64,000 bases of DNA from Candidatus Binatia bacterium (GTDB lineage: Bacteria > Desulfobacterota > Binatia > UTPRO1): assembly GCA_036496285.1 (NCBI GenBank), contig DASXLI010000024.1:37125-101124 (forward strand), read 5' to 3'. The position numbers were made by a program, and so were the translations under genes. The notes under the pieces were generated by a model that saw only the letters and a program-made list of their open reading frames with translations, searched no databases and had not been told where the DNA came from. Shown here one piece after another: positions 10,333-64,000 of the stretch; position 1 is the stretch's first letter; the number at the start of each line of letters is the position of its first letter.

Positions 10333-10360
10333 CCGCGTGCGCCCGCGGTGCGGAGCGCCG

Positions 10361-30628: not shown

Positions 30629-30649
30629 GCGACCGGCGGAGCAGCCGAC

Positions 30650-32634: not shown

Positions 32635-32645
32635 GTGGCGTGCCG

Positions 32646-33428: not shown

Positions 33429-33432
33429 CGGC

Positions 33433-34152: not shown

Positions 34153-34153
34153 C

Positions 34154-34882
34154 GTGGCGGCACCCTCGCCCCCGCTTCTCGTCGTCACGTTTTGCTACAA
34201 TGAGCGCATCAAGATTGCTTCGACGCTCGAGCGATTCTGCGGCCACCCGCAGTGGGACGTGTGGGTCATGGATGACGGCTCGACCGACGGCTCAACCGAC
34301 ACGCTCGAGCAGACGCACGGCGTGCGCATTATCCGACACGACCGCAACCGCGGCGCCGGCGCAGCTGTGCGGACCGTCTTCGAGGAGTTCGTGCGCTCCC
34401 CCTATCAGGTGGTCGTCCTCGTCGCCGGCAACGACAAGGACCGGCCAGAAGACGTCATGCGCGCCGCAACGCCGGTCCTCACCGGAGAACGCGACGTCGT
34501 GCAGGGCTCGCGTTACCTTCCCGGAGGCGAGATCGCCAACATTCCCGTCTATCGCCAACTCGCGACGCGCTACGTTCACCCGATGATCTTCAACGTCGTC
34601 TCCGGACTCCGCATGACCGACACGACGAACGGGTTTCGCGCGATTCATCGCCGTGTGCTGGAAGATCCCCGCCTCGACCTCTCGTCTCCGAGGCTCGATC
34701 AGTACGACCTCGAGCCCTTCTTCCTCCTGAAGACCGCCCGCCTCGGCTATCGCCTCGCCGAGGTCCCGGTGCGAAAGATCTATCCGAGGGGTAATCTCAG
34801 CTATACGAAGATGGCTCCGGTAACTGGCTGGTGGAGCATTCTGAGGCCGCTCATCTATTGCGGCCTGGGCATCTGGAAATGA
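34154..34882 (+). CDS. GT2 family glycosyltransferase, DPM1/ArnC/CsbB-like polyprenyl-phosphate sugar synthase
   Basis: It has VVTFCYNE, VWVMDDGSTDGS and GSRY motifs, a C-terminal hydrophobic segment, and a GTG start. Confidence 0.8.
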   Translation: MAAPSPPLLVVTFCYNERIKIASTLERFCGHPQWDVWVMDDGSTDGSTDTLEQTHGVRIIRHDRNRGAGAAVRTVFEEFVRSPYQVVVLVAGNDKDRPEDVMRAATPVLTGERDVVQGSRYLPGGEIANIPVYRQLATRYVHPMIFNVVSGLRMTDTTNGFRAIHRRVLEDPRLDLSSPRLDQYDLEPFFLLKTARLGYRLAEVPVRKIYPRGNLSYTKMAPVTGWWSILRPLIYCGLGIWK

Positions 34883-35997: not shown

Positions 35998-36010
35998 TCG
36001 GCATCTGCTG

Positions 36011-38353
36011 GTGACTTCTGATCGCAGGCGAGCGCGGCCGCCCGGAATCAACTGGGCTTCACTCGCCCTCGCATGTTGCGTCTTCCTCGCGGCTGCGCTC
36101 GTGATGTTCGGCGACGTCCTCCTGGCCGGCAACTCCCGAATCCTCTCGATCCCGAACGAGGACATCACGCGTCCGCTCTTCTACTCCCTGCCGTTCGGAT
36201 TCGGGGAGCTCAGAAAAGGACACCTCGTCCTCTGGAATCCCTACAACTACGCCGGGCTGCCGTTCCTCGGAGCCTTCGGCCACGCACTCCTCTATCCACC
36301 GCATTGGCTGCACATGTTCCTCGCTCCCGCGCTCGGCATCGACGTCGAGATTGCGCTGCATCTGTTCCTGGCGGGCGTCTTCGTCTACCTCTGGACCTCG
36401 CACCGTCGCCTGCATCCCGCGGCGTGCATCCTGGCGGGGCTGGTCTTCATGTTCTCGGGCGCGGTGTTTCTCCAGATCTACCGCGGCCATCTGCACTGCA
36501 TCATCTCGCTGACGTGGGCCCCGCTCATCATGCTGGCCATCGACGGAGTGCTCGACGGTACGCCCCGGCCGTCCCCCCGCGTGTGGACGATGATCGGCAT
36601 GGTGGCCGTCGCCATGCAGATACTCTCCGGACACGTTCAGTACACGTTTTACACAGCCATCATCGCCGGCATCTATGCGCTGCTCCGCTGGCTGACGGCG
36701 AGCCGACGGCTGCGTGACGTCCTATGCCTGGCGATGATCTATGCAGGAGGCGCGAGCCTGGCGGCCGTGCAGCTCTTCACCGGACTGCAGGCGGCCTCGG
36801 AAGGCTATCGCACGAGCATCAGCTACGACGTTGCTGCGTCGTTCGCCTTCCCACCCGAAAACGTCCTCACCCTGATCTTTCCCGGCTTCTTCGGCGACAT
36901 GGTCTCCACGCCCTATTGGGGTCGATGGACGCTCACGGAGATGTCGCTGTTCATGGGCGTCTGCCCGTTCGTGATCGCTGTATGCGCGCTCGTACACGGC
37001 GCCAAGGGCGTGCGGCGCTTCAGCCTCCTCATGGCGGTGATCGTTCTCGTTCTCGCCTTCGGCGACTACACCCCGCTCTTCCGCCTCTTGTACGATCACG
37101 TCCCGGGCTTTCAGAACTTCCGCGGGACGACGAAGTTCACGTTCCTCGCGCTCTTGTTCCTCTCGATGCTCGTAGCGGTGGGGTTCGACTACCTGCTGCG
37201 GTCGCGCGTTCCCCGGTGGCTCGCCGTGAGCGCGTTCCTCACTAGCGCCTTGTTGACCGCGGGTGGCCTGGCGCTGGCGTCCGATTGCCGGTCGGGAGGA
37301 CGCGACATCTGGACTCCGACCCTTTCGAGGATGTCCTTCCTCGCGGAGGCCTACCAAAGCTTCATCGTCGAGCGTGCCACCGGGTCGCTCGCGGCGTGTC
37401 AGAACGCTTCGCGATCGTTGTGGATCACCGCCGGAACGTTGGCCGTGTTCGGCGCGCTGTCAGTGGCGGCACGTCGTTGGCACCGCCTCGTCTACGTCAT
37501 CGGGTTGGTCGGTGTCATCGAGCTCATGGCGTATGCCCGATATACGCGGCCGACATTCGATCCGACACCGCTCGCCGAACGCAGTGTGACCTTGCGCCGG
37601 CTACTCGATGAGCGGGATGCCGGCGACGCGCGAATCCTGAGCTACGACCCGTACTCGTACATCGCGATGGGCGCGCGCGCATACGATCTGTGGGGGGCCG
37701 AACCCGCCCTGCTCGGTCGCTACGCGCGCTTCGTCGCCCTCACGCAGCGATGGCCGACGGATGCGATCCTCGTGACCTCGGGCATGCGCACGCCTACCCC
37801 GCTGCTCGGAATGTTGCGTCTTCGATACTTGCTCCGGATGAACGCCGAGCAGATGACGCTGCTACCGACCAACCTGCCGCAGCTTCCGCGGGCCGCCCTC
37901 ATCTCCAATTGGAACGTGCTGCCGGATTCCGATCACGTCCTCGCGGCTCTTCAGGACACGACTTTCGATCCAACGCGGATCGCTCTCCTGGAACACGATC
38001 CGGGACTCACTCCGAGCGGATCCGAAGAGCCTGGACAGATCTCCATCCATGACCTCTCGACGGAGGAGATCGACATTACGGTCGACGCGCCACAACCGTC
38101 GATCCTGGTCATCAGCGACAACTACAGTGCAAGCTGGAAGGCTGCGCCTCTCGACCCGGGAGACACGCGCTCATACGTCGTCGAGCCCGCGGACTATCTG
38201 CTACGCGCGATTCCCTTGCCGGCCGGACATCATCACATCCGTCTCGAATACCGACCGTCGGCGCTGATCCTCGGGACGTGGGTAACGGTCTCGACGATCG
38301 CGGCGTGCCTGGTGGTTCTGGCGTTGGAATGGCGGCGCGTGCGCAAGCGGTGA
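36011..38353 (+). CDS. GT-C fold polytopic membrane glycosyltransferase, YfhO family-like (~780 aa)
   Basis: It has at least 12 TM helices, an LVLWNPYNYAGLPFLG motif in the first periplasmic loop, a large C-terminal soluble domain and a final TM. The probable GTG start is 14 nt after the aminotransferase stop. Confidence 0.7.
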   Translation: MTSDRRRARPPGINWASLALACCVFLAAALVMFGDVLLAGNSRILSIPNEDITRPLFYSLPFGFGELRKGHLVLWNPYNYAGLPFLGAFGHALLYPPHWLHMFLAPALGIDVEIALHLFLAGVFVYLWTSHRRLHPAACILAGLVFMFSGAVFLQIYRGHLHCIISLTWAPLIMLAIDGVLDGTPRPSPRVWTMIGMVAVAMQILSGHVQYTFYTAIIAGIYALLRWLTASRRLRDVLCLAMIYAGGASLAAVQLFTGLQAASEGYRTSISYDVAASFAFPPENVLTLIFPGFFGDMVSTPYWGRWTLTEMSLFMGVCPFVIAVCALVHGAKGVRRFSLLMAVIVLVLAFGDYTPLFRLLYDHVPGFQNFRGTTKFTFLALLFLSMLVAVGFDYLLRSRVPRWLAVSAFLTSALLTAGGLALASDCRSGGRDIWTPTLSRMSFLAEAYQSFIVERATGSLAACQNASRSLWITAGTLAVFGALSVAARRWHRLVYVIGLVGVIELMAYARYTRPTFDPTPLAERSVTLRRLLDERDAGDARILSYDPYSYIAMGARAYDLWGAEPALLGRYARFVALTQRWPTDAILVTSGMRTPTPLLGMLRLRYLLRMNAEQMTLLPTNLPQLPRAALISNWNVLPDSDHVLAALQDTTFDPTRIALLEHDPGLTPSGSEEPGQISIHDLSTEEIDITVDAPQPSILVISDNYSASWKAAPLDPGDTRSYVVEPADYLLRAIPLPAGHHHIRLEYRPSALILGTWVTVSTIAACLVVLALEWRRVRKR

Positions 38354-50977: not shown

Positions 50978-52171
50978 TCACACGATGCCGCGCTCCGCAA
51001 GGCCGGCGAGCGCGGCGTCATCGATCCCGAGTGCGCCGTAGATTTCCCGGTTGTGCTCGCCGAGCTCGGGCGCCAGGGCGCGCGTCCGCGGCGAGGCGCC
51101 GTCGAAGCGCACGGCGTTGCCGTGCAGGAGGATCTGGCCGAGGCCGGGATGCGGGTGGCGCTCGATCATCCCGCGGGCGACGAGCTGCGGATCGTCGATC
51201 AGCTCGTCGGGGCGGGCGACGCGCGCGCAAGGCACATCGGCCCCCGAGGGCCCGAATGCCGCGAGCACCTCGTCGCAGGTCCGCACCCGGACCCACTCGC
51301 CGACGATGCCGTTCAGCTCCTTGCGCCGGGCGGCCCGTCCCCGATGGTGCTTGAAGCGCTCGTCGGAGGCGAGCGCGGGCGTGCCCATCGCCGTGCAGAT
51401 GCGGCGGAAGAGCCGGTTGCTGGCGGAACCGACGACGACCCAGCCGTCGCGCGCCTCGAACGCATCGTACGGGGCGCTGAACGAGTGCTGGTTGCCGACC
51501 CGCTCGGCCGGGATGCCGAGGCCGGCGGAGATCGTTGCCCAGGAGTCGGTGATGGCGAAGATCGCGTCCTGGTTGGAGAGATCGAGCACCCGGGCGCGGC
51601 CGGTCCGCTCGCGCTCCAGAAGCCCCGCGACCACCCCGAAGGCGAGGAAGAGCCCGCCGACGAAGTCGGCGAGCGCGCCGCCGCCCCGGACGGGCGGGCC
51701 ATCGGGAAACCCGGTCATGGCAAGGAGGCCGCCCGCCGCCTGGGCGACGATGTCGTACGACACCTGGCCGGCGCGCGGCCCGGTCGCGCCGAAGCCGGAC
51801 AACGCGCCGACGACGAGCCGCGGGTTGCGCGCCTGGAGGACCCCGGGGCCGAGACCCTTGGACGCCATCCAGCCGGAGCGGAAGTTCTCGACGACCGCGT
51901 CGGCGCCGTCGACCAAACGCAGAAAGATCTCGCGCCCTTCCGGCTGGCCGACGTCCAGCGTGATCGAGCGCTTGCCACGGTTCACGTTTTCGAAGGCGAG
52001 CGAGGTGTGCCCTTCCGGCGCAGGTCCGTAGCGGTAGTCGTCGCCCGTACGCGGGCGCTCGACCTTGATCACGTCGGCGCCGAGATCGGCGAGCATCGCC
52101 GTCGCGAACGGTCCTGCGACCACGCGCGTGAGATCGAGGATGCGCAGCCCTTCGAGAACGCGCCCGGACAC
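50978..52171 (-). CDS. CoA-transferase family III (CaiB/BaiF) protein
   Basis: It begins [35 protein letters not shown] and contains an Asp nucleophile region. Confidence 0.85.
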
Positions 52172-52249
52172 GGCGGCATGCTAGCAGCCCGAGGCGAATT
52201 CACCAGCGCGACCTTGACGGTTTCGGGCGTGCGGCGCATTCTGACCACG

Positions 52250-52345
52250 CACGCTGGGGGAGTCGCGGCAGGCGCGACTGAGAGGGCAAGCCGGCCGCTT
52301 GCCGACCCCTCGAACCTGACCCGGATCATGCCGGCGGAGGGAAGC
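52250..52345 (+). promoter_or_regulatory. TPP (THI-box) riboswitch in the thiC leader
   Basis: CUGGGGGAGUCGCGG...CUGAGAGGG...ACCCCUCGAACCUGACCCGGAUCAUGCCGGCGGAGGGA matches the conserved CUGAGA, ACCC and GAACCUGAUC..GG.U.AU.CCGGCG.AGGGA cores. The RBS-like GGAGGG is embedded in its 3' arm. Confidence 0.85.
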
Positions 52346-52348
52346 GAG

Positions 52349-54040
52349 ATGACGACGGACCTGACGCAACTCGAAGCCGCGCGCCGCGGAATCGTCACCG
52401 ACCAGATGGCGCGCGTCGCCGAACGCGAGAACGCTGCGCCCGAGCTGATCCGCTCCGAGGTCGCGCGCGGCCGGCTCGTCATCCCCGCCAACGTCCGGCA
52501 TCTCGCCGGCAGCGGTGGGCAGCCCGTTCCAACCGGCGCCGACGCGTCGGCAATCCACGCGGCCGACGCCGCGGCGAGCGGACATCCGGGCGCGGCGGCC
52601 GAGGCGCGCTACTGGGTGAACCAGACCGTCGCGCAACGCTGGAGCGAGATCACCGACGACGCCGCGCTACGCGGCGTGCACGCGCCGAAGCGGCTCGATC
52701 CTACCGGCATCGGCCGCATGGTCACGACCAAGATCAACGCCAACATCGGTGCGTCGCCGGTCTCGAGCGGCACGGCGGCCGAGGTCGAGAAGCTGCGCTG
52801 GGCGCAGAAGTACGGCGCCGACACGTTGATGGATCTCTCGACCGGCGGCGATCTCGCCGCCTGCCGGCAGGCGATCATCGATCACGCGACGATCCCGATC
52901 GGGACGGTGCCGATCTACTCGATGATCCTCGGACGCGCGATCGAGGACCTCACGTACGACGTCATCCTGCGCGAGATCGAGCACCAGGCGCAGCAAGGCG
53001 TCGACTACTTCACGATCCACGCCGGGGTGCTGCGCGAGCATCTGCCGCTGATCGGCTCACGTGTCACCGGGATCGTCTCGCGTGGCGGCTCGCTCCTCGC
53101 GAAATGGATGATCGTGCACGGCAAGCAGAACCCGATGTACGAGCTCTTCGACGAAATCAGCGCGATCATGCGCGCTTACGACGTCACGTACTCGCTCGGC
53201 GACGGCCTCCGGCCCGGCTGCCTCGCCGACGCCTCGGACGCCGCGCAGCTCGCCGAGCTGCGCACGCTCGGCGAGCTCGTCCACCGCGCCCGCGAAACCG
53301 GGGTGCAGGCGATGGTCGAGGGTCCGGGACACGTCCCCCTCGACCAGATCGAGCGTAACATGCGGTTGCAGCAAGAGGTGTGCGACGATGCGCCCTTCTA
53401 CGTGTTGGGACCTCTCGTCACTGATGTGTTCCCCGGCTATGACCACATCACCAGCGCGATCGGCGCGACCGAGGCTGCTCGTCATGGCGCTGCCATGCTG
53501 TGCTACGTGACCCCCAAGGAACACGTCGGACTCCCCCGGGCCCAGGACGTGATGGCCGGGTGCGTGGCCTACAAGATCGCCGCCCACGCGGGCGACATCG
53601 CGCGCGGCATCCCCGGTGCGCGCCGCTGGGACGACGACCTCTCACGCGCGCGCGCCGCCCTCAACTGGCCGAAACAGTTCGAGCTCGCGTTCGACGGCGA
53701 CACCGCGCGCGCGCTGCACGACGAGGATCTCGAGGTCGATACCGACTTCTGCGCGATGTGCGGACACGACTGGTGCAGCATGCGTATCTCGAAGGAGATC
53801 CAGGAGTTCGCGAGCGGCAAGGACGCGGCGTTTCAGCCCGAGCGGCGCGCCGTACGGAGTCCCGGCGTGAGCGAGGACGGCCAGGCGCTCCTCGCGCGCC
53901 GCGGCACACTGCCCGTGAGCGAAGGTCGCCACGCCTGCCACAGCGAGCTCGTACCGGACGCCGAGTCTGCGCGGCGCGTCCAACGCGACGCCGCAGACGA
54001 CACAGCGGACCCGACGGCAGATCGTACAGCGACGCCATAG
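52349..54040 (+). CDS. thiC: Phosphomethylpyrimidine synthase ThiC
   Basis: It has the radical-SAM ThiC C-terminal [10 protein letters not shown] cluster motif and is ThiC-like throughout ([15 protein letters not shown]). Confidence 0.9.
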
Positions 54041-54799
54041 CGGAAGCACTGCGCAACCCGCATCAAACCGGATCGTTTCACCGTCTCGAGAAGCGCATGA
54101 GATCACGTCTGCGAATTGACACTCCGATTTGGACGCGGTACTCCGCGCTTCTCGGGCAGGTGTGGAGTGGAGTGGGGCGGCCCTCTGGCCCGCACGATCG
54201 GTTCGTGAACGGCCACTGTGGAATGTCGCCCGAGTGCCTGCTCTCCCCCCAGTCCAGAAGGGTGATTTTCCCTCCCGTCTTTGCGGGGTTTCGAACCGCG
54301 CACCCGGGAGACACCACTGGCACTGCAGTGCCGCAAACGTCACGGCGTGCGTCACTCGCCGCACCGTGGCACACGATGCCCGAAACTGGTGCACTGCTAT
54401 GGGTTTTGGCGGAGCGATCCGACACGAGCGCAATCGCCGCCCAACAATGCACGATCGCAACGAATTGCGCGCCGGAAGGGAAATCAAGGACTTGTATTTC
54501 GCGCTGTCGGATGCCGCTTGGAACGATTCTTGATGCCCTGCGTGATCACTCTCTGGCGGCACGATGAGCGCGATTTTCAAAGCGGGGTCGATGATTCGCG
54601 CAAGTCCGACATCGCCGGCGAAGACGCGCGACCAAAGGCATGTACATTCGCACTCACGGCTCCCCGGCATCCAATGGCGCACAGCTTGCACACGACTTCA
54701 CGTGCCTCGGCCTCGCGCCGCGACCCGGTCATGCCGATACCTGCGTATGGACTCACAGCGAACGCCATCCCCTTCCGCCGCCGTCGCCCCGAGGCTCGC

Positions 54800-55507
54800 A
54801 TGACGCCCCGAAGCGCGATGCGCGCGACGCTCCCCCTCCTGGCCGTGCTCTGCACGCTGGCGGCCTGCAGCTACCCGAAGGCGCCCTACGATCCGCCGCT
54901 GCCGACCCTGGCCCACCCAGCGACGGGTGCGCCGGGCGCCTACACGATGCTCGTCGGGGATGCGCTCTCGATCAAGTTCTACAAGAACCCCGAGCTGAAC
55001 GAGGACGTCGTAGTGCGCTCCGACGGCATGATCAGCTTGCAGCTCGTCGGCGACGTGCCGGCGGCGGGGCGGACGCCGATGGAGCTCGGCACCGATCTGA
55101 AGCAGCGCTTCTCGTCCGAGCTCCAGGATCCGTCGATCAGCGTGATCGTGCGGAAGCCGGTCGCCGACCGCGTCTACGTCGGCGGCGAGGTGGGCAAGCA
55201 GGGGTTCATCGATCTGACGGGCGGGCTCACGGTCTTCCAGGCCATCCAGGCGTCCGGCGGCTTCGCGAAGACGGCGCACCGCGCCCAGGTGATCCTGATT
55301 CGTCGCACGCCGGACGGCAAGGCGACGGGTCGCAGCATCGACGTACGTCCGGTCCAGGAGGGCATCCATCCGGAGGACGACGTGGTGGTAGTGGCCAACG
55401 ACGTCGTGTTCGTACCGCGCTCCAAGATCGCCAACGTCGACAACTTCGTGGACATGTACATCCGACAGGTACTGCCGATATCGACTTTCCCGCTACCCAC
55501 CTTCTGA
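54800..55507 (+). CDS. Polysaccharide export outer-membrane lipoprotein (Wza/GumB-like; Poly_export plus SLBB)
   Basis: It has a lipobox (LAACS), a PES-like motif (YTMLVGDALSIKFYKNPELNEDVVVRSDGMISLQLVGDVPAAGRT) and an SLBB domain. Confidence 0.8.
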   Translation: MTPRSAMRATLPLLAVLCTLAACSYPKAPYDPPLPTLAHPATGAPGAYTMLVGDALSIKFYKNPELNEDVVVRSDGMISLQLVGDVPAAGRTPMELGTDLKQRFSSELQDPSISVIVRKPVADRVYVGGEVGKQGFIDLTGGLTVFQAIQASGGFAKTAHRAQVILIRRTPDGKATGRSIDVRPVQEGIHPEDDVVVVANDVVFVPRSKIANVDNFVDMYIRQVLPISTFPLPTF

Positions 55508-55514
55508 GGACTGC

Positions 55515-57032
55515 ATGACGGAGCGAGAGTTCCCATGGCGTGAGATGGTCGCCGTACTGCACCGGCGGCGGCTGCTCATCGCCCAGGTGTTCATCGCCGG
55601 CGTCGCGACCGTCACCGTCGGGCTCTGGATCAAGGGGCCCACGTACCGGGCGACCGCGACCATGATGGTCACTGCCGATCGTGCGAAGAGCATCGTCACG
55701 TCCGACGCGAACACGCACGCCGTCGTGGACCAGGTTCGGGAGGGCGATCTCAACTCCGAGGCAACGCTGCTCCGTAGCGACGCGCTCATTCGCGAGGTCT
55801 TGAGTCCGTACTGGGAGAACCGTCAACCTCGCAAGCCGGGCAGCATCTTCGGCCGCGCGGTGTCGGGGGTGGTCCGCATCGTCACGCTTCCGTTGCGCAT
55901 ACCGGGCCACGTCTATCGCCTCGTGCACAACATCCCGCCGCCGACGGAGTTCGACGGCTGGGTCGCCGAGACGGAGAGCCATCTCACCATCAGCCCCATC
56001 CTGCACTCGAACCTCATCGAGGTGTCGGTTGACGACACGGATCCGAAATGGGCGGCGGATCTCGTCAACAAGGTGATCGCCCAACACATCGAGCGCCACG
56101 CGCGGCTGAATCAGCAGGCGGAGGCGCGGCAGTTCTATGAGAAGCAGCGCGAGCTGCTCGCGCAGAAGTCCGCCGATGCCGAGCAGTCATTGCAGCACTT
56201 CTACCAGCGGGAGCACGTCGATCCGGGCGCGGAGCAGCGCAGCGCAATGCGCGCACGGCTCGGGGAGTTGCAGACGAACCTCGCGAACTCGGAAACCGAG
56301 CTCGCCGAGGGCACCGCGCGCGTCGAGTTTCTCACGACCGAGATCAAGAACTACTCGCGCAACATCCCGACGTCGGCGCGCGTGGCGGAAAGCCCAACCG
56401 CCCAGCTCATCAAGCCGAAGATCATCGAGCTCGAGATGCAGCGCAGCCAGCTGCTCTCCACCTACGCACCGACGAGCGTGAAGGTGAAGGATCTCGACCG
56501 CCAGATCGCCGAGGCCAAGCGTCTGATGAACGAGTCGAAGGACACTACGAGCGACACCACGACCGCGGTGAATCCGACCTACCAGACGATCGAGGCGGAT
56601 CTCGCGTCCACCAAGGCGCAGATGGCGGCCGTGCGTGCGCGCGTCGAGACGCTGCGCACGCAGATCGCCGATTCGCGCGCGAAGGTCGACCATCTCGACG
56701 AGATCGGCGCCGAGCAGGAGCATCTCGAGCAACAGCTCGCCGCGGCCAAGGAAGCGTACGGTACCTACGCCAAGAAGGAAGAGGAGGCGCGCTTCAGCAG
56801 CGCCCTCGACGAATCGAGCATCGTCAACCTGGCGATCGCGGAGCCCGCAGAGCCGCCGGCGACGCCGGAGAAGACCAAGAACATCCTCGTCTTCTGCATC
56901 GGAATGCTTCTCAGCCTGTTCGTCGGCGTCGGCCTTGCGTTCATCCGTGACCGTCTCGATCCCGCCGTGAAGAGCGCCGCGGAGGCGCACGGCGTCACCG
57001 GCCTGCCGATCCTCGCGGAGGTGTCGTCGTAG
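55515..57032 (+). CDS. Polysaccharide chain-length determinant (Wzz/GumC-like PCP) protein
   Basis: An N-terminal TM is followed by a long periplasmic coiled coil. It has a Pro-rich segment and a TM at the C-terminus (ILVFCIGMLLSLFVGVGLAFI). Confidence 0.8.
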   Translation: MTEREFPWREMVAVLHRRRLLIAQVFIAGVATVTVGLWIKGPTYRATATMMVTADRAKSIVTSDANTHAVVDQVREGDLNSEATLLRSDALIREVLSPYWENRQPRKPGSIFGRAVSGVVRIVTLPLRIPGHVYRLVHNIPPPTEFDGWVAETESHLTISPILHSNLIEVSVDDTDPKWAADLVNKVIAQHIERHARLNQQAEARQFYEKQRELLAQKSADAEQSLQHFYQREHVDPGAEQRSAMRARLGELQTNLANSETELAEGTARVEFLTTEIKNYSRNIPTSARVAESPTAQLIKPKIIELEMQRSQLLSTYAPTSVKVKDLDRQIAEAKRLMNESKDTTSDTTTAVNPTYQTIEADLASTKAQMAAVRARVETLRTQIADSRAKVDHLDEIGAEQEHLEQQLAAAKEAYGTYAKKEEEARFSSALDESSIVNLAIAEPAEPPATPEKTKNILVFCIGMLLSLFVGVGLAFIRDRLDPAVKSAAEAHGVTGLPILAEVSS

Positions 57033-57066
57033 CCGGAGCATTGTCCGACACACGTTCCCCATCGCC

Positions 57067-58422
57067 ATGTACACGGGTCACTTCCACCTACGTTCCGAAG
57101 CCTTCTCCCTCACGCCCGATCCGGCGTTCCTGTATCTGAGCCCGGGCCACGCCGAGGCCCTCGCGGGCCTCAAGGTCGGCCTCGAAGGCCGCCGCGGCTT
57201 GATGGTGGTCGTGGGCGAGGTCGGGATGGGGAAGACGACGGTGCTCTACTCGCTCCTCACCGAGCTCGGCGAGGGCATCAAGACCGCCTACATCTCCAAC
57301 ACCAAGCTGCCGTTCGACGACATCCTGCGCCAGGCGCTCTCCGACTTCGGCGTGCCGTGCGCGAGCCGCGACCGGGTGGAGCTGCTGTCCGCCCTGAACG
57401 GCTTCCTGCGCGAGTGCGCCTCCGACGGCACGACCGCCGCCCTCGTCATCGACGAAGCCCAGAACCTCGAGAGCGACGTCTTCGAAAACCTCCGGCTGCT
57501 GTCGAACTACGAGACCTACACCGAGAAGCTCTTGCAGATCGTGCTGGTCGGCCAGCCCGAGCTGGAGATGAAGCTGCGCCACCCGAGCCTCCGCCAGGTG
57601 GTGGAGCGCGTCGCGGTGCGCTGCAACATCAATCCGCTGAGCCGCGCCGAGAGCATGCGCTACGTCGAGCACCGCCTGCAGCGCGCCGGCGGCTCGGCGT
57701 CGGCCATCTTCACGACGCCGGCGCTCGAGTTCTTGCTGGTGAAGGCGCGTGGCATCCCGCGCCGTATCAACATCCTCTGTCACACGGCCATGCTCTTCGC
57801 GTACGGCCGCGGCGAGCAGCTCGTGACCTTTTCCATGGCACGGGCCGCCGCGCGCGAGAAGGAAGGCCGCGGCCTGATCACGCTGCGCCGCGGGCTGCTG
57901 CCGAGCGCCGCGCCGGCGGCCGAGGCGCAGACCACGCCGCGTTTCCGTCCCGCGTGGGCGGGCGTGGGCTTCGTCGCCGGCATCGTGGTCATGGTCGGGC
58001 TGGGCGTTCTCGACGGCCGGACCGCGCCGCGCGACGCCGTGAGCGCGCCGGCCGCGCAGCCGCTCCTCGACGAAAGCGCCGAGGCGTTGCAGCGCGAGCG
58101 CGCCGACAAGCGCCTGAACGAGGCGATCGAGACGCTCACCGCGGCCATCGCGGCCCAACAGAAGGCGAACGCCGAAGCTCCCGCGGTGGTGACACCGAAC
58201 GCGGAAGAGCTTCCGGCGCCGACGCTCGAGCCGCAGTCGTACAAGGAGATCCGCGTGCGCCGGGGCACGACGCTCCGCGCGCTCGTAAAGGAGGTCTACG
58301 GCCAGGACAAGCCGGACCTGATCGACCGTATCAAGACCGCCAACCCGCAGATCGTGAATGCCGACCGCATCATCGCCGGCGATATGTTGCGTTTCCCGGA
58401 CTCGGCCACGGTACGCGAATGA
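57067..58422 (+). CDS. GspA/ExeA-like AAA ATPase of the exopolysaccharide-locus (PEP-CTERM-associated) type
   Basis: It has Walker A (GEVGMGKTT), Walker B (LVIDEAQNL), a central TM, and a C-terminal LysM-like segment (YKEIRVRRGTTLRALVKEVYGQDKPDLIDRIKTANP). Confidence 0.8.
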   Translation: MYTGHFHLRSEAFSLTPDPAFLYLSPGHAEALAGLKVGLEGRRGLMVVVGEVGMGKTTVLYSLLTELGEGIKTAYISNTKLPFDDILRQALSDFGVPCASRDRVELLSALNGFLRECASDGTTAALVIDEAQNLESDVFENLRLLSNYETYTEKLLQIVLVGQPELEMKLRHPSLRQVVERVAVRCNINPLSRAESMRYVEHRLQRAGGSASAIFTTPALEFLLVKARGIPRRINILCHTAMLFAYGRGEQLVTFSMARAAAREKEGRGLITLRRGLLPSAAPAAEAQTTPRFRPAWAGVGFVAGIVVMVGLGVLDGRTAPRDAVSAPAAQPLLDESAEALQRERADKRLNEAIETLTAAIAAQQKANAEAPAVVTPNAEELPAPTLEPQSYKEIRVRRGTTLRALVKEVYGQDKPDLIDRIKTANPQIVNADRIIAGDMLRFPDSATVRE

Positions 58423-59285
58423 GCAACTACTTCCAGGTACTGAAGCGCATCGAGAAGGACCGCGCCGGCAAGGTCGCGGCACTCCCCGCCGCCGAGGCCG
58501 CGCCGGCTCCGTCCGTTGCGCCGCGCGAGCCCGCGCCGGCACCGCCGGTCGTCGAGGAGCGTGTCGCGCGCGAGGTGCAGCCGATCATCCGTGCCGTGCC
58601 GCCGCCGCGCCCGTCGGTCACGACGTTGCAGCCGATGGCTCCCGCGGCGCCGCGCACGCCGGCACCGCGTCCCGCGCCGTTCGTCCCACCTCCGGTCCGT
58701 CCGCGCTCGTCGGCGCCGCTCTCGCACGAGCGCCAGCGCGGCATCGCGACGCTCCTCGACAAGATGCGCGCGCTCGGCAGCGGTCAGTCGTCGCGCACCT
58801 TCGTCTTCGCCGGTGCGGCGCCGTCCGACAGCGTCCACAGCGTGAGCGACGGCCTGGCCCGCCACGCCGAAGGCTTCGGGATGCACGTGTTGATCGCGCA
58901 GCTCTTCGTACACGGGGGCGGCCACAAGCTGGTCGCCGTCGGCCCGATCGAGAACGACGCCGACCGCACGGCAACGATCGACCTGCACGGCCCGGCCGCG
59001 CCCGACGAGCTGAACGCGTGGGTCGACCGCGTCGCCTCGACGCACGACCTCGTCGTGCTCGAGGGCCCACCGCTCTCGGAATCGATCGACGCGGCGCTGC
59101 TCGCCTGCGCCTGCGACGGCCTCGTGATCGTCGCGGACGCCGAGGTCACGCCGCGCGCGGCGCTGCAGACCGCGGCGGAGCGTGCGCATACCGCGGGCTG
59201 CCGCACGCTCGGCGTCGTGATGAGCGGCACCAAGGAACGTCTCCCGGGCTGGGTTCGCCGGCTCGGCATCGGCGGGAACGGCTGA
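58419..59285 (+). CDS. Pro-rich N-terminus plus a degenerate ParA/BY-kinase-like P-loop domain (Walker A Lys/Ser absent)
   Basis: The N-terminal 110 aa are rich in Pro, Ala and Arg. The C-terminal region has FVFAGAAPSDSVHSVSDGLA in place of GxxxxGK[ST], and a Walker-B-like DLVVLEGPP. It is ATGA-coupled to both neighbours. Confidence 0.55.
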   Translation: MSNYFQVLKRIEKDRAGKVAALPAAEAAPAPSVAPREPAPAPPVVEERVAREVQPIIRAVPPPRPSVTTLQPMAPAAPRTPAPRPAPFVPPPVRPRSSAPLSHERQRGIATLLDKMRALGSGQSSRTFVFAGAAPSDSVHSVSDGLARHAEGFGMHVLIAQLFVHGGGHKLVAVGPIENDADRTATIDLHGPAAPDELNAWVDRVASTHDLVVLEGPPLSESIDAALLACACDGLVIVADAEVTPRAALQTAAERAHTAGCRTLGVVMSGTKERLPGWVRRLGIGGNG

Positions 59286-60694
59286 TGGCCCCGCGACGCA
59301 AAGCGCTGATCACGGTCCTCAAGCTGACCGACCTCGCCGTCGTGACGGCGGCGCTGGTCGCCGCCGTGGCCATCACGACCGACGGCGCGAGGATCCTCGA
59401 TTGGCCCGCGATCCTCGAGCTGCGCCTGTCGATCGGCAACGTCCTGGTGTTCGCGATGTACATCGTCGCCTGGCACTTCATCCTGAAGGTGCGCGGCCTG
59501 TACAAGTCGTACCGGCTGTCGCCCGCGTCGCGCGAGCTGCGCGACATCGCCATCGCGGTGCTGATCGGCGCCGCGCCGATCGCCCTCGCCGTCCTCCTCG
59601 GCGCGATGAGCGAGCGGTTCCTGGTCGCGTTCTCGCTGGGGAGCTTCCTCGGCCTCGCCGTCGAGCGCCGTTGCCTGCGCGCCGTCGCGCGCCGCGTCCG
59701 CGGCTTCGGCCGCAATCTCCTCGACGTCGTGATCGTCGGCGACGAGACGTGCGCGCTCGACGCTGCCGTGCGGCTCGTGCAGCGCGAGGGGCTCGGCTAC
59801 CGGGTCATCGAGATCGTCGGCGTGGGGCCGTTCGACGCTGATCCGCAGACGCACAAGGACGTCCTCGCGACGGTCGAGCAGATCCTCGAGCGCCAGCCGA
59901 TCGACGAGGTGTTCCTCGCGATCCCGCTCGACCGCACCCAGCCACTCCTCCAACCCCTCATTACGATGTGCGAGGAGCAGGGCACCACGCTCCGCCTGGT
60001 GGCGAGCCTCGCCGTCCTCGATTGGTCGCGTGCCGCGGTCGACTCACTCGCAGGACAGCCGGTGCTCACCATCTCGTCCGGACCGCCCGACTCGCTGCGC
60101 CTGGTCGTGAAGCGCTCCATCGATCTCGCCGCCTCGGCAGTGGGCCTGGTCCTCTTCCTGCCGCTTTTCACCGCCATCGCGATCGCCATCAAGCTCGACT
60201 CGCAGGGCCCGGTGCTCTTCGCCCAGGACCGCGTCGGCCTGAACCGTCGCCGCTTCAGAGCGCTCAAGTTCCGCACGATGATCCAGGGCGCCGACCTCAT
60301 GCAGCCGGACCTCGAGTCGCTGAACGAGGCCGAGGGCCCTGTCTTCAAGATCCAGGACGATCCGCGCATCACCCGGCTCGGGCGTGCGCTCCGCCGCTTG
60401 AGTCTCGACGAGCTTCCCCAGCTCTTCAACGTCCTGGTCGGCGACATGAGCCTCGTCGGCCCGCGTCCGCTGCCGGTGCGCGACGTGAGCCGCATCGACG
60501 TGCGCTGGCACAAGCGCCGCTTCAGCGTGAAACCCGGCATCACCTGCCTGTGGCAGATCAACAGTCGCGAGCCGAAGTTCGAGGAATGGATCCGCTCCGA
60601 CATGGAATACATCGACAACTGGTCCCTCGCGCTCGACATGAAGATCCTTGCCAAGACTCTGCCCGCCGTCATCTCGGGGCAGGGCGCTCACTGA
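59285..60694 (+). CDS. Undecaprenyl-phosphate sugar phosphotransferase (WbaP/EpsB-type priming glycosyltransferase)
   Basis: It has four or five N-terminal TM helices, a Rossmann-like CoA-binding-type domain, and a C-terminal catalytic domain (KRSIDLAASAVGLVLFLPLF...KFRTM...LDELPQLFNVLVGDMSLVGPRP). Confidence 0.85.
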   Translation: MAPRRKALITVLKLTDLAVVTAALVAAVAITTDGARILDWPAILELRLSIGNVLVFAMYIVAWHFILKVRGLYKSYRLSPASRELRDIAIAVLIGAAPIALAVLLGAMSERFLVAFSLGSFLGLAVERRCLRAVARRVRGFGRNLLDVVIVGDETCALDAAVRLVQREGLGYRVIEIVGVGPFDADPQTHKDVLATVEQILERQPIDEVFLAIPLDRTQPLLQPLITMCEEQGTTLRLVASLAVLDWSRAAVDSLAGQPVLTISSGPPDSLRLVVKRSIDLAASAVGLVLFLPLFTAIAIAIKLDSQGPVLFAQDRVGLNRRRFRALKFRTMIQGADLMQPDLESLNEAEGPVFKIQDDPRITRLGRALRRLSLDELPQLFNVLVGDMSLVGPRPLPVRDVSRIDVRWHKRRFSVKPGITCLWQINSREPKFEEWIRSDMEYIDNWSLALDMKILAKTLPAVISGQGAH

Positions 60695-60721
60695 CGCGTA
60701 CTCTTCCAGGAGACCCATACC

Positions 60722-61480
60722 TTGCGCACCGACAGCGCGCCCGTCACCGTCATAGTTCCCTGCTACAACGAGGAGGACGGCCTTCCCGCCTTGCTCACGC
60801 GACTGCGCAAAATGCGCACGAACGGGGCGAGCGATTGGCACTTCCTTTTCGTCGACGACGGCTCGACCGACAACACGTTCGGCCGCTTGCTGCGCGCGGC
60901 GCGCAGCGAGTCGTGGATCGAGGTCGTGCGCCATCACGAGAATCTCGGCCTGGGAGCCGCGCTGCGTACGGGCTTCGCCCACACGCGCTCGCCGATCGTC
61001 TGCACCATCGATAGCGACTGTACCTATCCGCCCGAAAAGCTTCCCGAGCTTGCCGAGCTCGTCTCGAGCGGCTCCGAGATCGTCACCGCCTCCGCGTGGC
61101 ATCCCGAGAGCGCAAGCGCCGAGGGAAGCCGCATCCGCATCCAGCTGAGCCGCATGGTCTCGGCGCTCTACAAGCTTCTCATCGGGCAAGACGTCTACAC
61201 GTTCACCTGTCTGTTCCGCGCGTATCGGCGCGATTCGATTCAAAGCATCCACTTCCGCTCCAACGGCTTCGCGGCGGTGGCGGAGATGATGCTGCGCGCG
61301 ATGTTGGCCGGCTATCGCGTCGCAGAGGTCCCGATGCGACTCGAAAGCCGGCGTTTCGGTGAATCGAAGCTCAAGGTCAGTGACGCTATCGTCGCCCACT
61401 GTCGCCTGCTCCTGATGACGGCGCTGATGGTCAGCACCCGGCAAGCGCGTGGTTTACGCAGAGAGAAGCTCGCCAACTGA
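60722..61480 (+). CDS. GT2 family glycosyltransferase (DPM1-like)
   Basis: It has VTVIVPCYNEE and FLFVDDGSTDNT motifs, a probable TTG start, and a C-terminal hydrophobic segment. Confidence 0.75.
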   Translation: MRTDSAPVTVIVPCYNEEDGLPALLTRLRKMRTNGASDWHFLFVDDGSTDNTFGRLLRAARSESWIEVVRHHENLGLGAALRTGFAHTRSPIVCTIDSDCTYPPEKLPELAELVSSGSEIVTASAWHPESASAEGSRIRIQLSRMVSALYKLLIGQDVYTFTCLFRAYRRDSIQSIHFRSNGFAAVAEMMLRAMLAGYRVAEVPMRLESRRFGESKLKVSDAIVAHCRLLLMTALMVSTRQARGLRREKLAN

Positions 61481-61502
61481 GGCGGGCGAAAGGACCCCCC
61501 AC

Positions 61503-62549
61503 ATGCGATTCGGTCTCATCGGTCTCGGCCGCGCTGGCGGCGTGCATTTCGATTCGTTCAAGCACGTCGAGGGCTCGGACGTGACGGCTGTCTGTGATCC
61601 CTCGCCCGTCGCACGCAAGCGGGCGCGTGATCTCGGCATACGCACCTACACCAACCCCGACGTCATGCTGGAGGCAGGCGAGCTCGACGCGGTCGTGATC
61701 GCGGCGCCGCCGGCGGACCACACCGAGCTGGCGATCAAGTGTCTCGAGGCGGGGCTGCACGTGCTGTGCGAGAAGCCGCTCTCGCTCACCACGTGGGACG
61801 CCATGAAAATGCTGCAGACGGCACAGCGCCGCCGGCGCACGCTCCTCCTGGCAACCAAGTTCCGCCACGTCCCCGAGCTGGCGCAGGCGCGCGAGCTCAT
61901 GGCCGCGGGCAAGATCGGTGATCCGGTCGCGTTCGAGGTGAGCTTCTGCAGCCCGGTCGACATGTCGAAGCGCTGGAACTGCCAGCGCTCGCGCGCCGGC
62001 GGCGGCGTCATCATCGACAACGGCTGCCACGCGTTCGACATCGTCTCCTATCTCTTCGGGACGGTGACGTGGGTGCAGGCCAACCTGCACAAGTCCGGGC
62101 AGCGCCTCGCGGTGGAGGACAGCGCCTCCATCCAGGTGCGCGCGCTCGACGGGGTCATCGGCCGCGTCGACGTGAGCTGGAGCCTCTCCACGGGCCGCGA
62201 CAGCTACGTCACGATCTACGGCTCGAAGGGCACGATCGAGGTGGGCTGGCGCAACACCCGCATGAAGATCGGCAACGCCGATTGGGAGGGCTTCGGCGCC
62301 AACTACGACAAGATCGACGCCCACCGGCGCATGCTCACTTGCTTTGTCGAGGCATGCTCCGGCAACGCCGCGCCCTGGATCAGCACGGTGGAGTGCTTGC
62401 GGACGGTCGCAGCGGTCGAGGCGGCGTATCGCTCGATTCACACCGGGGGTTGGGAACGGGTCGACATGAAGGGCATGCGCGAGCGCCGCGGCGTGGCGCG
62501 GGCCCGGGCGACGACGCGCAAGCGCGCGGCGACGTCCATCGGCGCATGA
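61503..62549 (+). CDS. Gfo/Idh/MocA oxidoreductase (WbpB-like)
   Basis: It begins MRFGLIGLGRAGGVHFDSF and has the EKP motif (CEKPLSL). Confidence 0.8.
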   Translation: MRFGLIGLGRAGGVHFDSFKHVEGSDVTAVCDPSPVARKRARDLGIRTYTNPDVMLEAGELDAVVIAAPPADHTELAIKCLEAGLHVLCEKPLSLTTWDAMKMLQTAQRRRRTLLLATKFRHVPELAQARELMAAGKIGDPVAFEVSFCSPVDMSKRWNCQRSRAGGGVIIDNGCHAFDIVSYLFGTVTWVQANLHKSGQRLAVEDSASIQVRALDGVIGRVDVSWSLSTGRDSYVTIYGSKGTIEVGWRNTRMKIGNADWEGFGANYDKIDAHRRMLTCFVEACSGNAAPWISTVECLRTVAAVEAAYRSIHTGGWERVDMKGMRERRGVARARATTRKRAATSIGA

Positions 62550-63166
62550 GCGCCGAGACACCTCCCTCCTCCCCCGCTCCCCGCATCCATCCGACAGCCC
62601 TCATCGAGCCCCGGGTCGAACTCGGCCCGGGGACCTCGGTGTGGGACAACGTCCACATCCGTGGTCCCGCGTGGATCGGGGCGGACTGCATTATAGGGGA
62701 GAAGACGTACATTGCGTATGGCGTGCACATAGGGAGTTGCGTCAAAATCAATGCGCAAGTCTATGTGTGTACCGCCGTCACCATCGAGGATCGCGTCATG
62801 ATCTCCGCGGGCGTGATCTTCACGAACGACCGGTATCCGCGCGCCTTCGGCATCGACGGCGACGGCCTGGCGTCGTCCGACCCGAACGAGGACACCCTGG
62901 AGACGGTCGTACGCGAGGGCGTTACGATCGGCGCCGGCGCGATCATCGGTCCGGGCCTCGAGCTCGGCGCCTACTCGATGATCGGCATGGGATCGGTGGT
63001 CACCGCCAACGTGCCGCCGCACGCGCTCGTCTACGGCAACCCGGCGCGCGTCCGCGGCTGGGTGTGCGTCTGCGGCGAGCCGCTGCCGTCGCCCGAGCGC
63101 CAGGCCGATGCCTCGGCCGCGTGCAAGCGCTGCGGGCGAGCGCGGCCGGTCACGGGACTGCAATGA
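62546..63166 (+). CDS. Hexapeptide-repeat (LbH) acetyltransferase, WbpD-like sugar N-acetyltransferase
   Basis: It has left-handed beta-helix hexapeptide repeats (IHPTALIEPRVELGPGTSVWDNVHIRG...) and a C-terminal Cys-containing tail. The ATGA overlap with the upstream oxidoreductase is present. Confidence 0.8.
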   Translation: MSAETPPSSPAPRIHPTALIEPRVELGPGTSVWDNVHIRGPAWIGADCIIGEKTYIAYGVHIGSCVKINAQVYVCTAVTIEDRVMISAGVIFTNDRYPRAFGIDGDGLASSDPNEDTLETVVREGVTIGAGAIIGPGLELGAYSMIGMGSVVTANVPPHALVYGNPARVRGWVCVCGEPLPSPERQADASAACKRCGRARPVTGLQ

Positions 63167-64000
63167 TCCGCCTCGTCGCACGCGACGCCGAGTCCGCTTT
63201 CGGCGTGCAGGCCATCCTCGACACCGAGAAGGTGCCATACGGGACGGCTGCGTGCGGCGACGACACTCCGCTCGTCGCGGGGCGTGGCGCCACGAGCGCC
63301 GACCTCGCTGCGCTCGCCGGGCGGCGCGGCCTGATCCTCCACGGCGGGGCGGACGTCGCCCGCCGCCTGCTCGGCGCGTCGAACGCGAAGGACGCCGAAC
63401 GCACGGTCGTGCTGCCGATCACCGAGACGCTGTGGCGCCCCGCGACCGTCGCGCGCGCGCACGCCCTCGGCGTCAGTACGCTCACCCTGCCCGCGACGCC
63501 GCTCTGCTCCATCGCCGACGTCACGCAGGGCCGCGTCGTCGCGCGCATGACCGACGGCACGCCGGCCGTCGCCGAGCGCGACGGCACCACGTGGTGCGCG
63601 ATCGATGTCGGCGCCGCGTTCACGCGCCTCCTCACCGAGCACGCGGTGCCGGTGCACGCCGAGGCGTCCACGCCCTCGGCATGGCGGCTCGCGGCTCGCC
63701 GGCTCGCGGAGCACGCATACTATGCCGCGCCCGAGGCGCTGCGGCAGAAGGTGCAGCGCCGGTTCTACGCGAGCCTCGAGGCTCGCCTCGCGACGCTCGG
63801 CGGCGCCGCGTCGTCGTACCCGGTCGACCCGAGCGGCTGGCTCGTCGCCGAGCTGCTCCTCGGCCTCGTGCGCCGCCTCGGCGCACCGCTCGTACGGATC
63901 GCGCGCTGGCCGGCGCCATTCACCGCAGCCGCGACCCTCACGCACGACATCGAGCCGCGGCGCTTCGCGTACACGCGCGGCCTCACCGCGCTTCTCGGCG
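63163..64000 (+). CDS. Hypothetical protein, partial at the 3' end (possibly polysaccharide-modifying, deacetylase-like)
   Basis: The ATG at 63163 overlaps the upstream TGA (ATGA). The reading frame stays open to the window end with high GC3 codon bias, giving MIRLVARDAESAFGVQAILDTEKVPYGTAACGDD...ATLTHDIEPRRFAY. It is not in the ORF track because it has no stop codon. Confidence 0.45.
   Translation, partial: MIRLVARDAESAFGVQAILDTEKVPYGTAACGDDTPLVAGRGATSADLAALAGRRGLILHGGADVARRLLGASNAKDAERTVVLPITETLWRPATVARAHALGVSTLTLPATPLCSIADVTQGRVVARMTDGTPAVAERDGTTWCAIDVGAAFTRLLTEHAVPVHAEASTPSAWRLAARRLAEHAYYAAPEALRQKVQRRFYASLEARLATLGGAASSYPVDPSGWLVAELLLGLVRRLGAPLVRIARWPAPFTAAATLTHDIEPRRFAYTRGLTALLG

Follow-up and report, generated by a model that had tools for sequence, protein, structure and literature searches.

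Does a gene cluster for exopolysaccharide (EPS) production that resembles those associated with exosortase A (XrtA) and PEP-CTERM proteins (Haft 2006, PMC1569441) belong to such a system if it carries no exosortase? This question is raised by the locus that starts at position 54800 of a 64,000-nt stretch of DNA from a Candidatus Binatia bacterium (GenBank assembly GCA_036496285.1, contig DASXLI010000024.1), the whole of which is here called the window. We consider it probable that the locus is a Wzx/Wzy-dependent EPS or capsule operon of the same stock as the XrtA/PEP-CTERM-associated EPS clusters, with no exosortase in or beside it, and that 54800-64000 makes up the first third, from the 5′ end, of a ~37 kb operon for biosynthesis and export. 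What is new in it is that an exosortase-free XrtA-type cassette combines a LysM-anchored, ExeA-like ATPase with a pseudokinase, an arrangement conserved in the six loci examined.

Because the window has ~70% G+C, raw lists of open reading frames (ORFs) are rich in spurious frames; genes were called from a frame plot of third-position G+C (GC3) and a codon model. This yields nine co-directional genes on the plus strand (g1 to g9), which run from 54800 to beyond 64000 and have the following predicted products:

54800-55507, plus strand: g1, outer-membrane polysaccharide export (OPX) lipoprotein, 235 aa
55515-57032, plus strand: g2, kinase-less polysaccharide co-polymerase (PCP) of the PCP-2 type, 505 aa
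57067-58422, plus strand: g3, ExeA/GspA-like AAA+ ATPase, 451 aa
58419-59285, plus strand: g4, stand-alone bacterial tyrosine (BY) pseudokinase, 288 aa
59285-60694, plus strand: g5, WbaP/WcaJ-type priming transferase, 469 aa
60722-61480, plus strand: g6, GT2 glycosyltransferase, 252 aa
61503-62549, plus strand: g7, Gfo/Idh/MocA sugar oxidoreductase, 348 aa, with its start as in the JGI gene call
62546-63166, plus strand: g8, left-handed beta-helix sugar N-acetyltransferase, 206 aa
63163 to beyond 64000, plus strand: g9, protein with a weak CE4 deacetylase domain, cut by the end of the window

The original prediction, made from the letters of this DNA alone, had listed a tightly coupled gene order from exporter to acetyltransferase, and Pfam and NCBIfam scans agree with it in every item. 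The coupling is likewise real, with four overlapping junctions, three of them ATGA overlaps (g3/g4, g7/g8 and g8/g9) and one a TGATG overlap (g4/g5); the remaining intergenic gaps amount to 7-34 nt.

As had also been foreseen, the locus continues past the window. A 58 kb JGI metagenome contig (L001) is identical to window positions 52546-64000 (100% over 11455 nt) and adds 5942 nt, ending at window coordinate 69942. It completes g9, which is 577 aa long there, and codes beyond it for an FAD oxidase, a DegT aminotransferase, a deacetylase, a WecG-family glycosyltransferase and a PgaB-like deacetylase. Exact matches to the source proteins otherwise led only to short Logan contigs. A search with the WecG-like protein for further extension of the source returned one Binatia contig ending 3 kb further, and metagenome contigs that were short and distant. 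Because the source contig ends after the 5.9 kb extension, we instead followed the cluster in the relative GCA_016200545.1, whose ATPase is 68% identical to g3 and which has the same RmuC/CoA-transferase/thiC flank. There the cluster continues with genes for a GDSL hydrolase, a deacetylase, a hypothetical protein, an oxidoreductase, an epimerase and a Wzx flippase, followed by a UDP-GlcNAc 2-epimerase, a heparinase II/III-like protein, an stp3-like GT4, an stp1-like GT4, a CapK_C-type ligase and a further GT4, and it ends with a convergent Wzy_C polymerase, a GDSL gene and a transposase. The set for a Wzx/Wzy pathway is thus distributed over the priming phosphoglycosyltransferase, PCP and OPX in the window, and Wzx (Polysacc_synt) and Wzy_C in GCA_016200545.1, with Wzy_C also seen in a further related locus, L031.

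That the window contains no exosortase, as originally predicted, is confirmed in several ways. The gene tables of the source contig and of six related contexts contain no PF09721 (Exosortase_EpsH), and no such gene lies within ±10 kb of the ATPase gene in the loci L009, L029, L030 and L031. A tblastn search with the Thiohalobacter XrtA-EpsI protein gives no match at E<1 to the window or to any locus of the Binatia type, and the multi-pass membrane proteins of the window are all CcmB, CcmC, CcmF, a YfhO-like protein or the priming enzyme. Inspection of the downstream sequence for xrtA/epsH and PEP-CTERM genes, by which the proposed kinship was to be checked, drew a blank both in the 5.9 kb extension and in the complete orthologous cluster of GCA_016200545.1. 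Among the predicted proteins and ORFs of the window and its extension (~70 kb) none has a PEP-CTERM-like tail; two matches of a PEP-CTERM regular expression turned up in the six frames, and neither has a real PEP-CTERM tail.

The resemblance to the XrtA family nevertheless holds in part. The XrtA-specific models TIGR03027, TIGR03007 and TIGR03015 are the best NCBIfam matches of g1, g2 and g3, respectively, but all three proteins score below the cut-offs (105.2 bits against 180 for g1, 161.9 against 278.9 for g2, and 258.4 bits, E 7e-77, against 324.5 for g3). The priming transferase g5 likewise falls short of TIGR03013 (184.4 bits against 393.4), whereas it passes the generic EPS priming transferase model TIGR03025 (373.8 against 295.6). 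Two CE4 deacetylases downstream have TIGR03006 as their best match, far below its cut-off, and the GT4 enzymes of the relative attain 340 bits against 442 with TIGR04063 (stp3) and 193 bits against 317 with TIGR03087 (stp1). The tyrosine kinase model TIGR03018 has no match at E<=1e-3, and neither it nor TIGR03016 matches any of the cluster proteins scanned. At least six gene families of the cluster thus have an XrtA-specific model as their best match. According to the original prediction, a flank devoid of exosortase and PEP-CTERM genes, together with low scores, would reduce the locus to a generic Wza/Wzz locus; an exosortase is indeed lacking from the flank, but the reduction to a generic locus does not follow, because the scores, though sub-threshold, are specifically XrtA-like. 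Conversely, with no exosortase nearby and with the specific models below threshold, we do not count the locus as a member of the XrtA systems.

These best matches could also be accommodated by a true XrtA/PEP-CTERM system that is split, with the exosortase, EpsI, the PEP-CTERM substrates and PrsK/R/T encoded elsewhere and the EPS serving as a matrix for the sorted proteins. The JGI annotation, which names homologues of the downstream GT4 “PEP-CTERM/exosortase A-associated glycosyltransferase”, accords with such an arrangement, as does the dependence of some exosortase systems on EPS clusters at other loci (epsSMASH preprint). However, in addition to the sub-threshold scores of all the XrtA-specific models, the missing TIGR03018 match and the lack of a PEP-CTERM tail in 70 kb, the layout of a canonical locus argues against it. 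In Thiohalobacter thiocyanaticus (L033), the genes for the ATPase, a deacetylase, a FemAB-like protein, stp1, XrtA-EpsI and stp2 are followed by those for asparagine synthase, stp3, a GT4, a sulfotransferase, a CapK_C ligase and Wzy_C; thus, XrtA is flanked by stp1 and stp2 in the interior of the cluster. The tail of the cluster in GCA_016200545.1 (stp3-like glycosyltransferase, glycosyltransferase, CapK_C ligase and Wzy_C) mirrors that of the Thiohalobacter locus, but this complete cluster and the six contexts are devoid of XrtA, FemAB, the EpsI domain and the asparagine-synthase amidotransferase. We accordingly hold a split system to be unlikely, though still deserving of serious consideration.

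An exosortase-free operon, which we favor, finds support in the conservation of its core. The genes for the OPX protein, PCP, ATPase, pseudokinase and priming transferase occur in this order in six of six contexts. A thiC-flanked orthologous locus is found in GCA_016200545.1 (L006/L027/L032), in a genome of 7.0 Mb (L009) and on a contig of 610 kb (L029), and the core recurs in L030 and L031 amid different surroundings, in each case beside an NtrC-type sigma-54 activator.

The third member of this core is the ATPase g3. Its cytoplasmic AAA_22 domain (PF13401, residues 1-265) displays a Walker A motif (GEVGMGKTT) and a Walker B motif (VIDEAQ), which, along with several arginines, are invariant in 50 homologues, and the Foldseek neighbors of this domain are ORC/Cdc6, MuB and TnsC of the initiator clade. 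Beyond residue 265 come a disordered linker, a membrane helix (~295-314, nt 57949-58008), a long periplasmic helix and a C-terminal LysM domain (residues 392-449, nt 58240-58413), for which AlphaFold predicts a beta-alpha-alpha-beta fold at pLDDT >90, with 83 for the model overall. Thus, the LysM-like tail that had been surmised from the letters proves to be genuine: while Pfam finds no LysM in it even at E<=1, a tail profile built from 17 homologues matches the LysM of Kbp (E 1.8e-8) along with further domains of this kind and has a weak match to TsaP, a protein associated with secretins. Of the 118 best homologues, 106 carry the LysM motif. One database match to g3, an AAA family ATPase ascribed to Candidatus Binatia, is 100% identical, and the nearest relatives come from metagenome-assembled genomes labeled Binatia or “Deltaproteobacteria bacterium”. 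A shorter form of the ATPase (371-388 aa; L030 10001-11116 and the proteins P0112 and P0111) retains the membrane helix but not the LysM tail; hence, the wall anchor is not universal in the family. The ATPase of the canonical Thiohalobacter XrtA locus (359 aa) is 36% identical to g3 in the ATPase domain, has neither membrane helix nor LysM and ends in a soluble coiled coil, a comparison with a single protein that is not to be generalized. Our literature searches found nothing relevant on TIGR03015, nor on Binatia in connection with PEP-CTERM or exopolysaccharide.

GspA/ExeA, which acts with GspB/ExeB, is a peptidoglycan-binding AAA_22 ATPase that aids secretin assembly in type II secretion, and MshM is a further example. 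JGI labels homologues of g3 “general secretion pathway protein A” or “ExeA”, and the succession of ATPase, membrane helix and peptidoglycan-binding domain is indeed the ExeA architecture. One might, hence, imagine a generic Wza/Wzc capsule locus in which an unrelated accessory of a type II secretion system or MSHA pilus (GspA/MshM) has come to lie by chance. This is hardly credible: in six of six loci, including the two with different surroundings, the ATPase gene is lodged between those of the co-polymerase and the pseudokinase, with an ATGA overlap with the latter, and its best family is the EPS-locus ATPase TIGR03015 rather than a secretion family. Moreover, there is no gene for GspB/ExeB, a secretin, a type II secretion system or an MSHA pilus in the window or its flanks; with no secretin or ExeB, the locus is not a GspA/ExeA system.

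The partner of the ATPase, g4, had been suspected of having a degenerate P-loop, and this suspicion was well founded. The protein has a conserved N-terminal helix (MSNYFQVLKRIEKD), a long Pro-rich linker and a BY-kinase fold lacking both the Walker A Lys and the Tyr-rich tail. It matches the BY-kinase family model TIGR01007 with 43 bits over its C-terminal half only, but its family profile matches CapB, Wzc and Etk at E ~1e-5, and the top 50 Foldseek matches in the PDB for its AlphaFold model (pLDDT 84) are all BY-kinase domains (Wzc, CapB, Etk, BceF and VpsO; E down to 3e-8). The segment VFAGAAPSDSVHS aligns to the P-loop with the lysine replaced, DLVVLEGPP stands in place of the Walker B DxxP motif, and the tail has no Tyr. 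GK[ST] is absent from g4 and five orthologues, and neither it nor the Tyr tail is seen in any of 132 aligned sequences, namely g4 and family representatives of at least 190 aa; the full-library search gave 1048 representatives of the family at E<=0.001 and 179 at E<=1e-10. By fold and motifs, g4 is thus a BY pseudokinase, which is predicted to have lost phosphorylation activity.

The translational coupling of the ATPase and pseudokinase genes, and their constant position between the co-polymerase and the priming enzyme, suggest a bolder possibility. The two could form an energizing module for phosphorylation-independent Wzx/Wzy pathways, with the ATPase providing the cycle of assembly and disassembly that the dead kinase has lost, and the LysM-tethered ATPase may then also open the wall for the translocon formed by a Class-3 OPX protein and its porin. 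We consider this speculative and rather improbable; were it true, it would give the long-unexplained “PEP-CTERM locus ATPase” (TIGR03015) an exosortase-independent function.

Within the proposed Wzx/Wzy-dependent operon, the presumed partner of the pseudokinase is g2, which crosses the membrane with two helices, forms a long coiled coil in the periplasm and lacks a kinase domain. It ends 28 aa past the second membrane helix in a cytoplasmic tail that is conserved in the orthologue alignment (RDRLDPxVKSxxEA..TGLPxLAEV). It matches Wzz and GNVR weakly, its best model being the above-mentioned TIGR03007. The exporter g1, a lipoprotein with the lipobox LAAC, combines Poly_export (PF02563) with one SLBB domain (PF10531) and has neither a Wza_C nor a GfcC domain. 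Its best solved relative is a chain of 186 aa (9n9a, E 2e-20), followed by PslD and then by domains 1-2 only of Wza, and its C-terminus (...PLPTF) ends in a Phe that is kept in five of six orthologues. On this domain composition g1 is classed as a Class-3 (short) OPX protein. Class-3 OPX proteins do not span the outer membrane and act with a separate beta-barrel porin (PMC9601211, PMC9603273, PMC12819527); g1, having no outer-membrane-spanning domain, should therefore need a porin encoded elsewhere. Two proteins of the window were considered for this role and set aside, as both are distant, belong to other families and have nothing that links them to the locus: a DUF1302 protein (820-2607, minus strand, 595 aa) and an OMP_b-brl protein (20714-21586, plus strand, 290 aa).

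The remaining genes of the window part of the locus bear on the chemistry of the product. With Bac_transf (PF02397), CoA_binding_3 (PF13727) and the above-cited score with TIGR03025, g5 is predicted to be a polyprenyl-phosphate hexose-1-phosphate (priming) transferase of the WbaP/WcaJ type. For g6 (PF00535), the best NCBIfam matches are ArnC-like proteins and dolichyl-phosphate hexose transferases, all sub-threshold, which point to a GT2 enzyme of the polyprenyl-phosphate sugar synthase (ArnC/DPM-like) type. The domains of g7 (PF01408, PF22725 and PF02894) and its sub-threshold match to the UDP-GlcNAc 3-dehydrogenase model NF040723 (115 bits) suggest an NAD-dependent sugar oxidoreductase of the WbpB-like UDP-GlcNAc 3-dehydrogenase type. 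The hexapeptide protein g8 (PF00132) is NeuD/PglB/WbpD-like (TIGR03570, 102 bits against a cut-off of 161), and g9 has weak matches to PF01522 and TIGR03006. Separately, we observed a set of genes that resemble the Arn-type route, namely those for the ArnC-like GT2 (window 60722-61480), an ArnD-like CE4 deacetylase (L001 14940-15845) and the DegT aminotransferase, a resemblance to which a PMT_2 enzyme of the GT-C type in L030 (18813-20189) adds. They hint at modification of side chains via an undecaprenyl-phosphate-linked amino sugar that would be transferred in the periplasm.

Genes of these kinds, i.e., WbpB/D/E-like genes, a WecG-family glycosyltransferase, an ArnC-like GT2 and ArnD-like deacetylases, are common in lipopolysaccharide pathways, and a Thr-rich secreted protein and a YfhO-like glycosyltransferase are encoded elsewhere in the window. 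They would suit a product that is an O-antigen, another lipid-linked glycan or a donor for protein glycosylation, rather than a secreted or capsular polymer. We regard this as very unlikely, because the combination of OPX, PCP-2 and BY-(pseudo)kinase defines capsule/EPS export, whereas O-antigen uses a PCP-1 Wzz and WaaL and no OPX protein (PMC12004946, PMC9603273).

Expression of the proposed EPS or capsule operon can be approached through its leader. The thiC gene ends at 54040 and is separated from g1 by a 760-nt intergenic region of lower G+C, in which we found no Rfam family, riboswitch, sigma-70-like promoter or terminator. At 54675-54690 on the plus strand, 110 nt before the ATG of g1, it carries a sigma-54-type motif, TGGCGCACAGCTTGCA, with GG at -24 and GC at -12, which is the only match to TGGCRC-N5-TTGCW on both strands of the window (0.07 expected). 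In L006, L009 and L029, the leaders of which are otherwise poorly conserved, the exporter gene is likewise preceded by an equivalent motif at a distance of 95-365 nt, and L031 has the variant TGGCTTACTGCTTGCA (TGGCTT-N5-TTGCA). The operon therefore probably starts from a conserved sigma-54-type promoter at 54675-54690, as judged from motif and conservation. An alignment of the intergenic regions of four Binatia loci further reveals a conserved non-coding block at 54420-54540 (plus strand), which is free of meaningful inverted repeats and may be an enhancer or a second promoter region; within it, at 54519-54534, is a second -24/-12-like motif (TGGAACGATTCTTGAT / TGGAACGNTTCTTGAT) that is conserved in L006, L009, L029 and L030. 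Control by sigma-54, dependent on RpoN and PrsR, has been described for PEP-CTERM systems (PMC1569441, PMC9850573), so that this promoter also fits the alternative in which an exosortase is encoded at a distance. A GAF histidine kinase of the window (2753-5155) was examined as a PrsK candidate and dropped because its best matches are generic kinases. Two other loci are of note here, L030 (7412-7772 and 5583-6965) and L031 (5424-6842): in both, an NtrC-type enhancer-binding response regulator is encoded directly upstream of the five-gene core, and in L030 an ORF of 86 aa with the PF14407 “Frankia_peptide” domain lies between the -24/-12-like motif and the exporter gene; neither the regulators nor this ORF has a counterpart in the window.

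Taking these components together, the operon would be transcribed from the sigma-54-type promoter under an enhancer-binding protein. The priming transferase g5 would load undecaprenyl phosphate, on which the glycosyltransferases would assemble a repeat unit with a high content of N-acetylated, probably 2,3-diacetamido, sugars; such a sugar could be supplied by the WbpB/WbpE/WbpD-like trio of g7, the DegT aminotransferase and g8, with the 2-epimerase of the relative and the WecG-family glycosyltransferase also at hand. Wzx would flip the repeat unit and Wzy polymerize it, while the CE4 enzymes would de-N-acetylate part of the product. We propose that g2 sets the chain length and bridges to g1, with g4 acting on its cytoplasmic tail as a phosphorylation-independent scaffold in the manner of EcpK and HfsB, which are scaffolds that act on kinase-less PCP-2 proteins without phosphorylation (PMC12004946); together, g2 and g4 would control polymerization and couple it to g1 and the porin. 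With its ATPase domain in the cytoplasm and its LysM on peptidoglycan, g3 would spend ATP on the assembly or anchoring of the envelope-spanning machine through the wall. This role, which the action of ExeA on the secretin suggests by analogy, is its most likely one, and it is the weakest step of the scheme.

Several points weigh against this interpretation. Wzx, Wzy and the closing part of the cluster are known only from a relative with a 68% identical ATPase, and the sugar chemistry is read from sub-threshold family matches. No porin partner gene for g1 is present in the source cluster or in that of the relative. The only characterized relatives of the ATPase act on secretins and not on polysaccharide exporters, so that its proposed role is by analogy. 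The promoter is a motif match with conservation and its start site a predicted one, and the window codes for no sigma-54 activator. Finally, the genome could code for an exosortase and PEP-CTERM proteins at some other place.

The locus shows that a gene set usually read as a marker of exosortase/PEP-CTERM systems can form a conserved cassette for EPS export that is self-contained and has no exosortase nearby; such a cassette was found in Binatia, an uncultured phylum, and in one or more loci from marine metagenomes. Hence, annotation by resemblance alone would over-call PEP-CTERM systems. For Binatia, which are known only from metagenomes, it provides a conserved candidate matrix or capsule locus with likely sigma-54 control. 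It further extends the recently defined phosphorylation-independent PCP-2/pseudokinase subfamily and links it to a peptidoglycan-anchored AAA+ ATPase with a predicted role in export.

The window also contains features outside the locus, which we record here:

5284-10801, minus strand: system I cytochrome c maturation operon (CcmC, CcmB, a CcmA-like ABC ATPase, CcmH-like proteins, CcmF and CcmE), with LpxA-like and RNase E/G-like genes further along the window
17634-20462, minus strand: protein of 942 aa that matches PF18582 (hydrazine-synthase alpha middle domain, E 1e-8) and, weakly, cytochrome c, and that has a PD40 repeat; no NCBIfam match
21866-25204, plus strand: 1112-aa secreted protein with a signal peptide, a Thr/Ala/Pro-rich imperfect repeat linker of ~410 aa (39% Thr) and a Cys-rich C-terminal part of 472 aa with 40 Cys; no PEP-CTERM tail
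29597-38353, plus strand: second, separate glycan-related cluster of lower G+C, coding for a Gfo/Idh/MocA oxidoreductase, an ATP-grasp protein, an NAD epimerase, two methyltransferases, a GT2, a DegT aminotransferase and a 750-aa YfhO-like multi-pass membrane protein
51053-54040: long ORF comprising thiC (~52400-54040) and upstream read-through
52246-52359, plus strand: TPP riboswitch (Rfam RF00059, 64 bits, above the gathering score) directly upstream of thiC

The 1112-aa protein is a candidate for a surface protein with heavy O-glycosylation. A “Gly/Val-rich membrane protein” called antisense to it is spurious, as the repeat gives high GC3 on both strands.

How, then, does the locus relate to systems already known? 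With GspA/ExeA it shares a cytoplasmic ATPase domain (AAA_22) at the N-terminus in which the Walker motifs are intact, one membrane helix and, at the C-terminal end in the periplasm, a peptidoglycan-binding module; however, this module is PF01471 in GspA/ExeA and LysM in g3, and the partners of the former are ExeB and the secretin, whereas the neighbors of the latter are polysaccharide export proteins. The likeness to the Class-3 OPX/Wzp translocons, typified by WzaB-WzpB, lies in the architecture of g1 (Poly_export and SLBB only), its lipidation and its short best solved relative, and its conserved C-terminal aromatic residue (P-x-F) recalls the Phe-Phe motif by which WzaB docks to its porin. 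Unlike in WzaB-WzpB, the tail of g1 has a single Phe after a Pro-rich stretch, and the cluster includes no gene for a beta-barrel porin.

The parallels with the XrtA loci extend over more genes. Common to both are the short exporter, the chain-length determinant, the GspA-like AAA_22 ATPase, the CE4 deacetylase, the stp1/stp3-type GT4 enzymes and the sigma-54-type promoter logic, along with a CapK_C-type ligase and a Wzy_C polymerase that are shared by Pfam domain and gene order only. Thus, the beginning and end of the cluster are shared, but the middle block of XrtA/EpsI, FemAB and the asparagine-synthase amidotransferase is absent from the Binatia cluster, which moreover has a pseudokinase where the XrtA loci have a kinase. 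The gene order also differs, in that the ATPase gene precedes the kinase-like gene and the core includes the priming transferase, and g3 has a membrane helix and periplasmic LysM in contrast to the soluble coiled-coil end of the one canonical XrtA ATPase examined. The zooglan cluster is likewise related to the XrtA-associated EPS loci.

The closest functional parallels are the EPS system of Myxococcus xanthus (EpsY/WzaX, EpsV, EcpK and EpsZ) and HfsA/HfsB of Caulobacter, with which the locus shares a Class-3 OPX protein, a kinase-less PCP-2 and a stand-alone pseudokinase. Like EcpK, g4 is devoid of Walker motifs and the Tyr tail, and its structural neighbors in the PDB are those reported for EcpK (Wzc, Etk, VpsO and CapAB) (PMC12004946). 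The WbaP-type priming enzyme is shared with Myxococcus too, and EpsZ and EpsY are among the NCBIfam matches of the cluster. Here, however, the pseudokinase lies next to the PCP that is presumed to be its partner, and it is coupled to an ATPase of the AAA+ class, a protein that the Myxococcus and Caulobacter systems are not known to have; there is no Wzp porin gene beside the OPX gene, and g4 has its conserved N-terminal helix and long Pro-rich linker. Thus, as far as gene content and domain architecture can tell, the locus is one that works like the Myxococcus-type EPS pathway, while by descent it is closest to the XrtA-associated EPS clusters.

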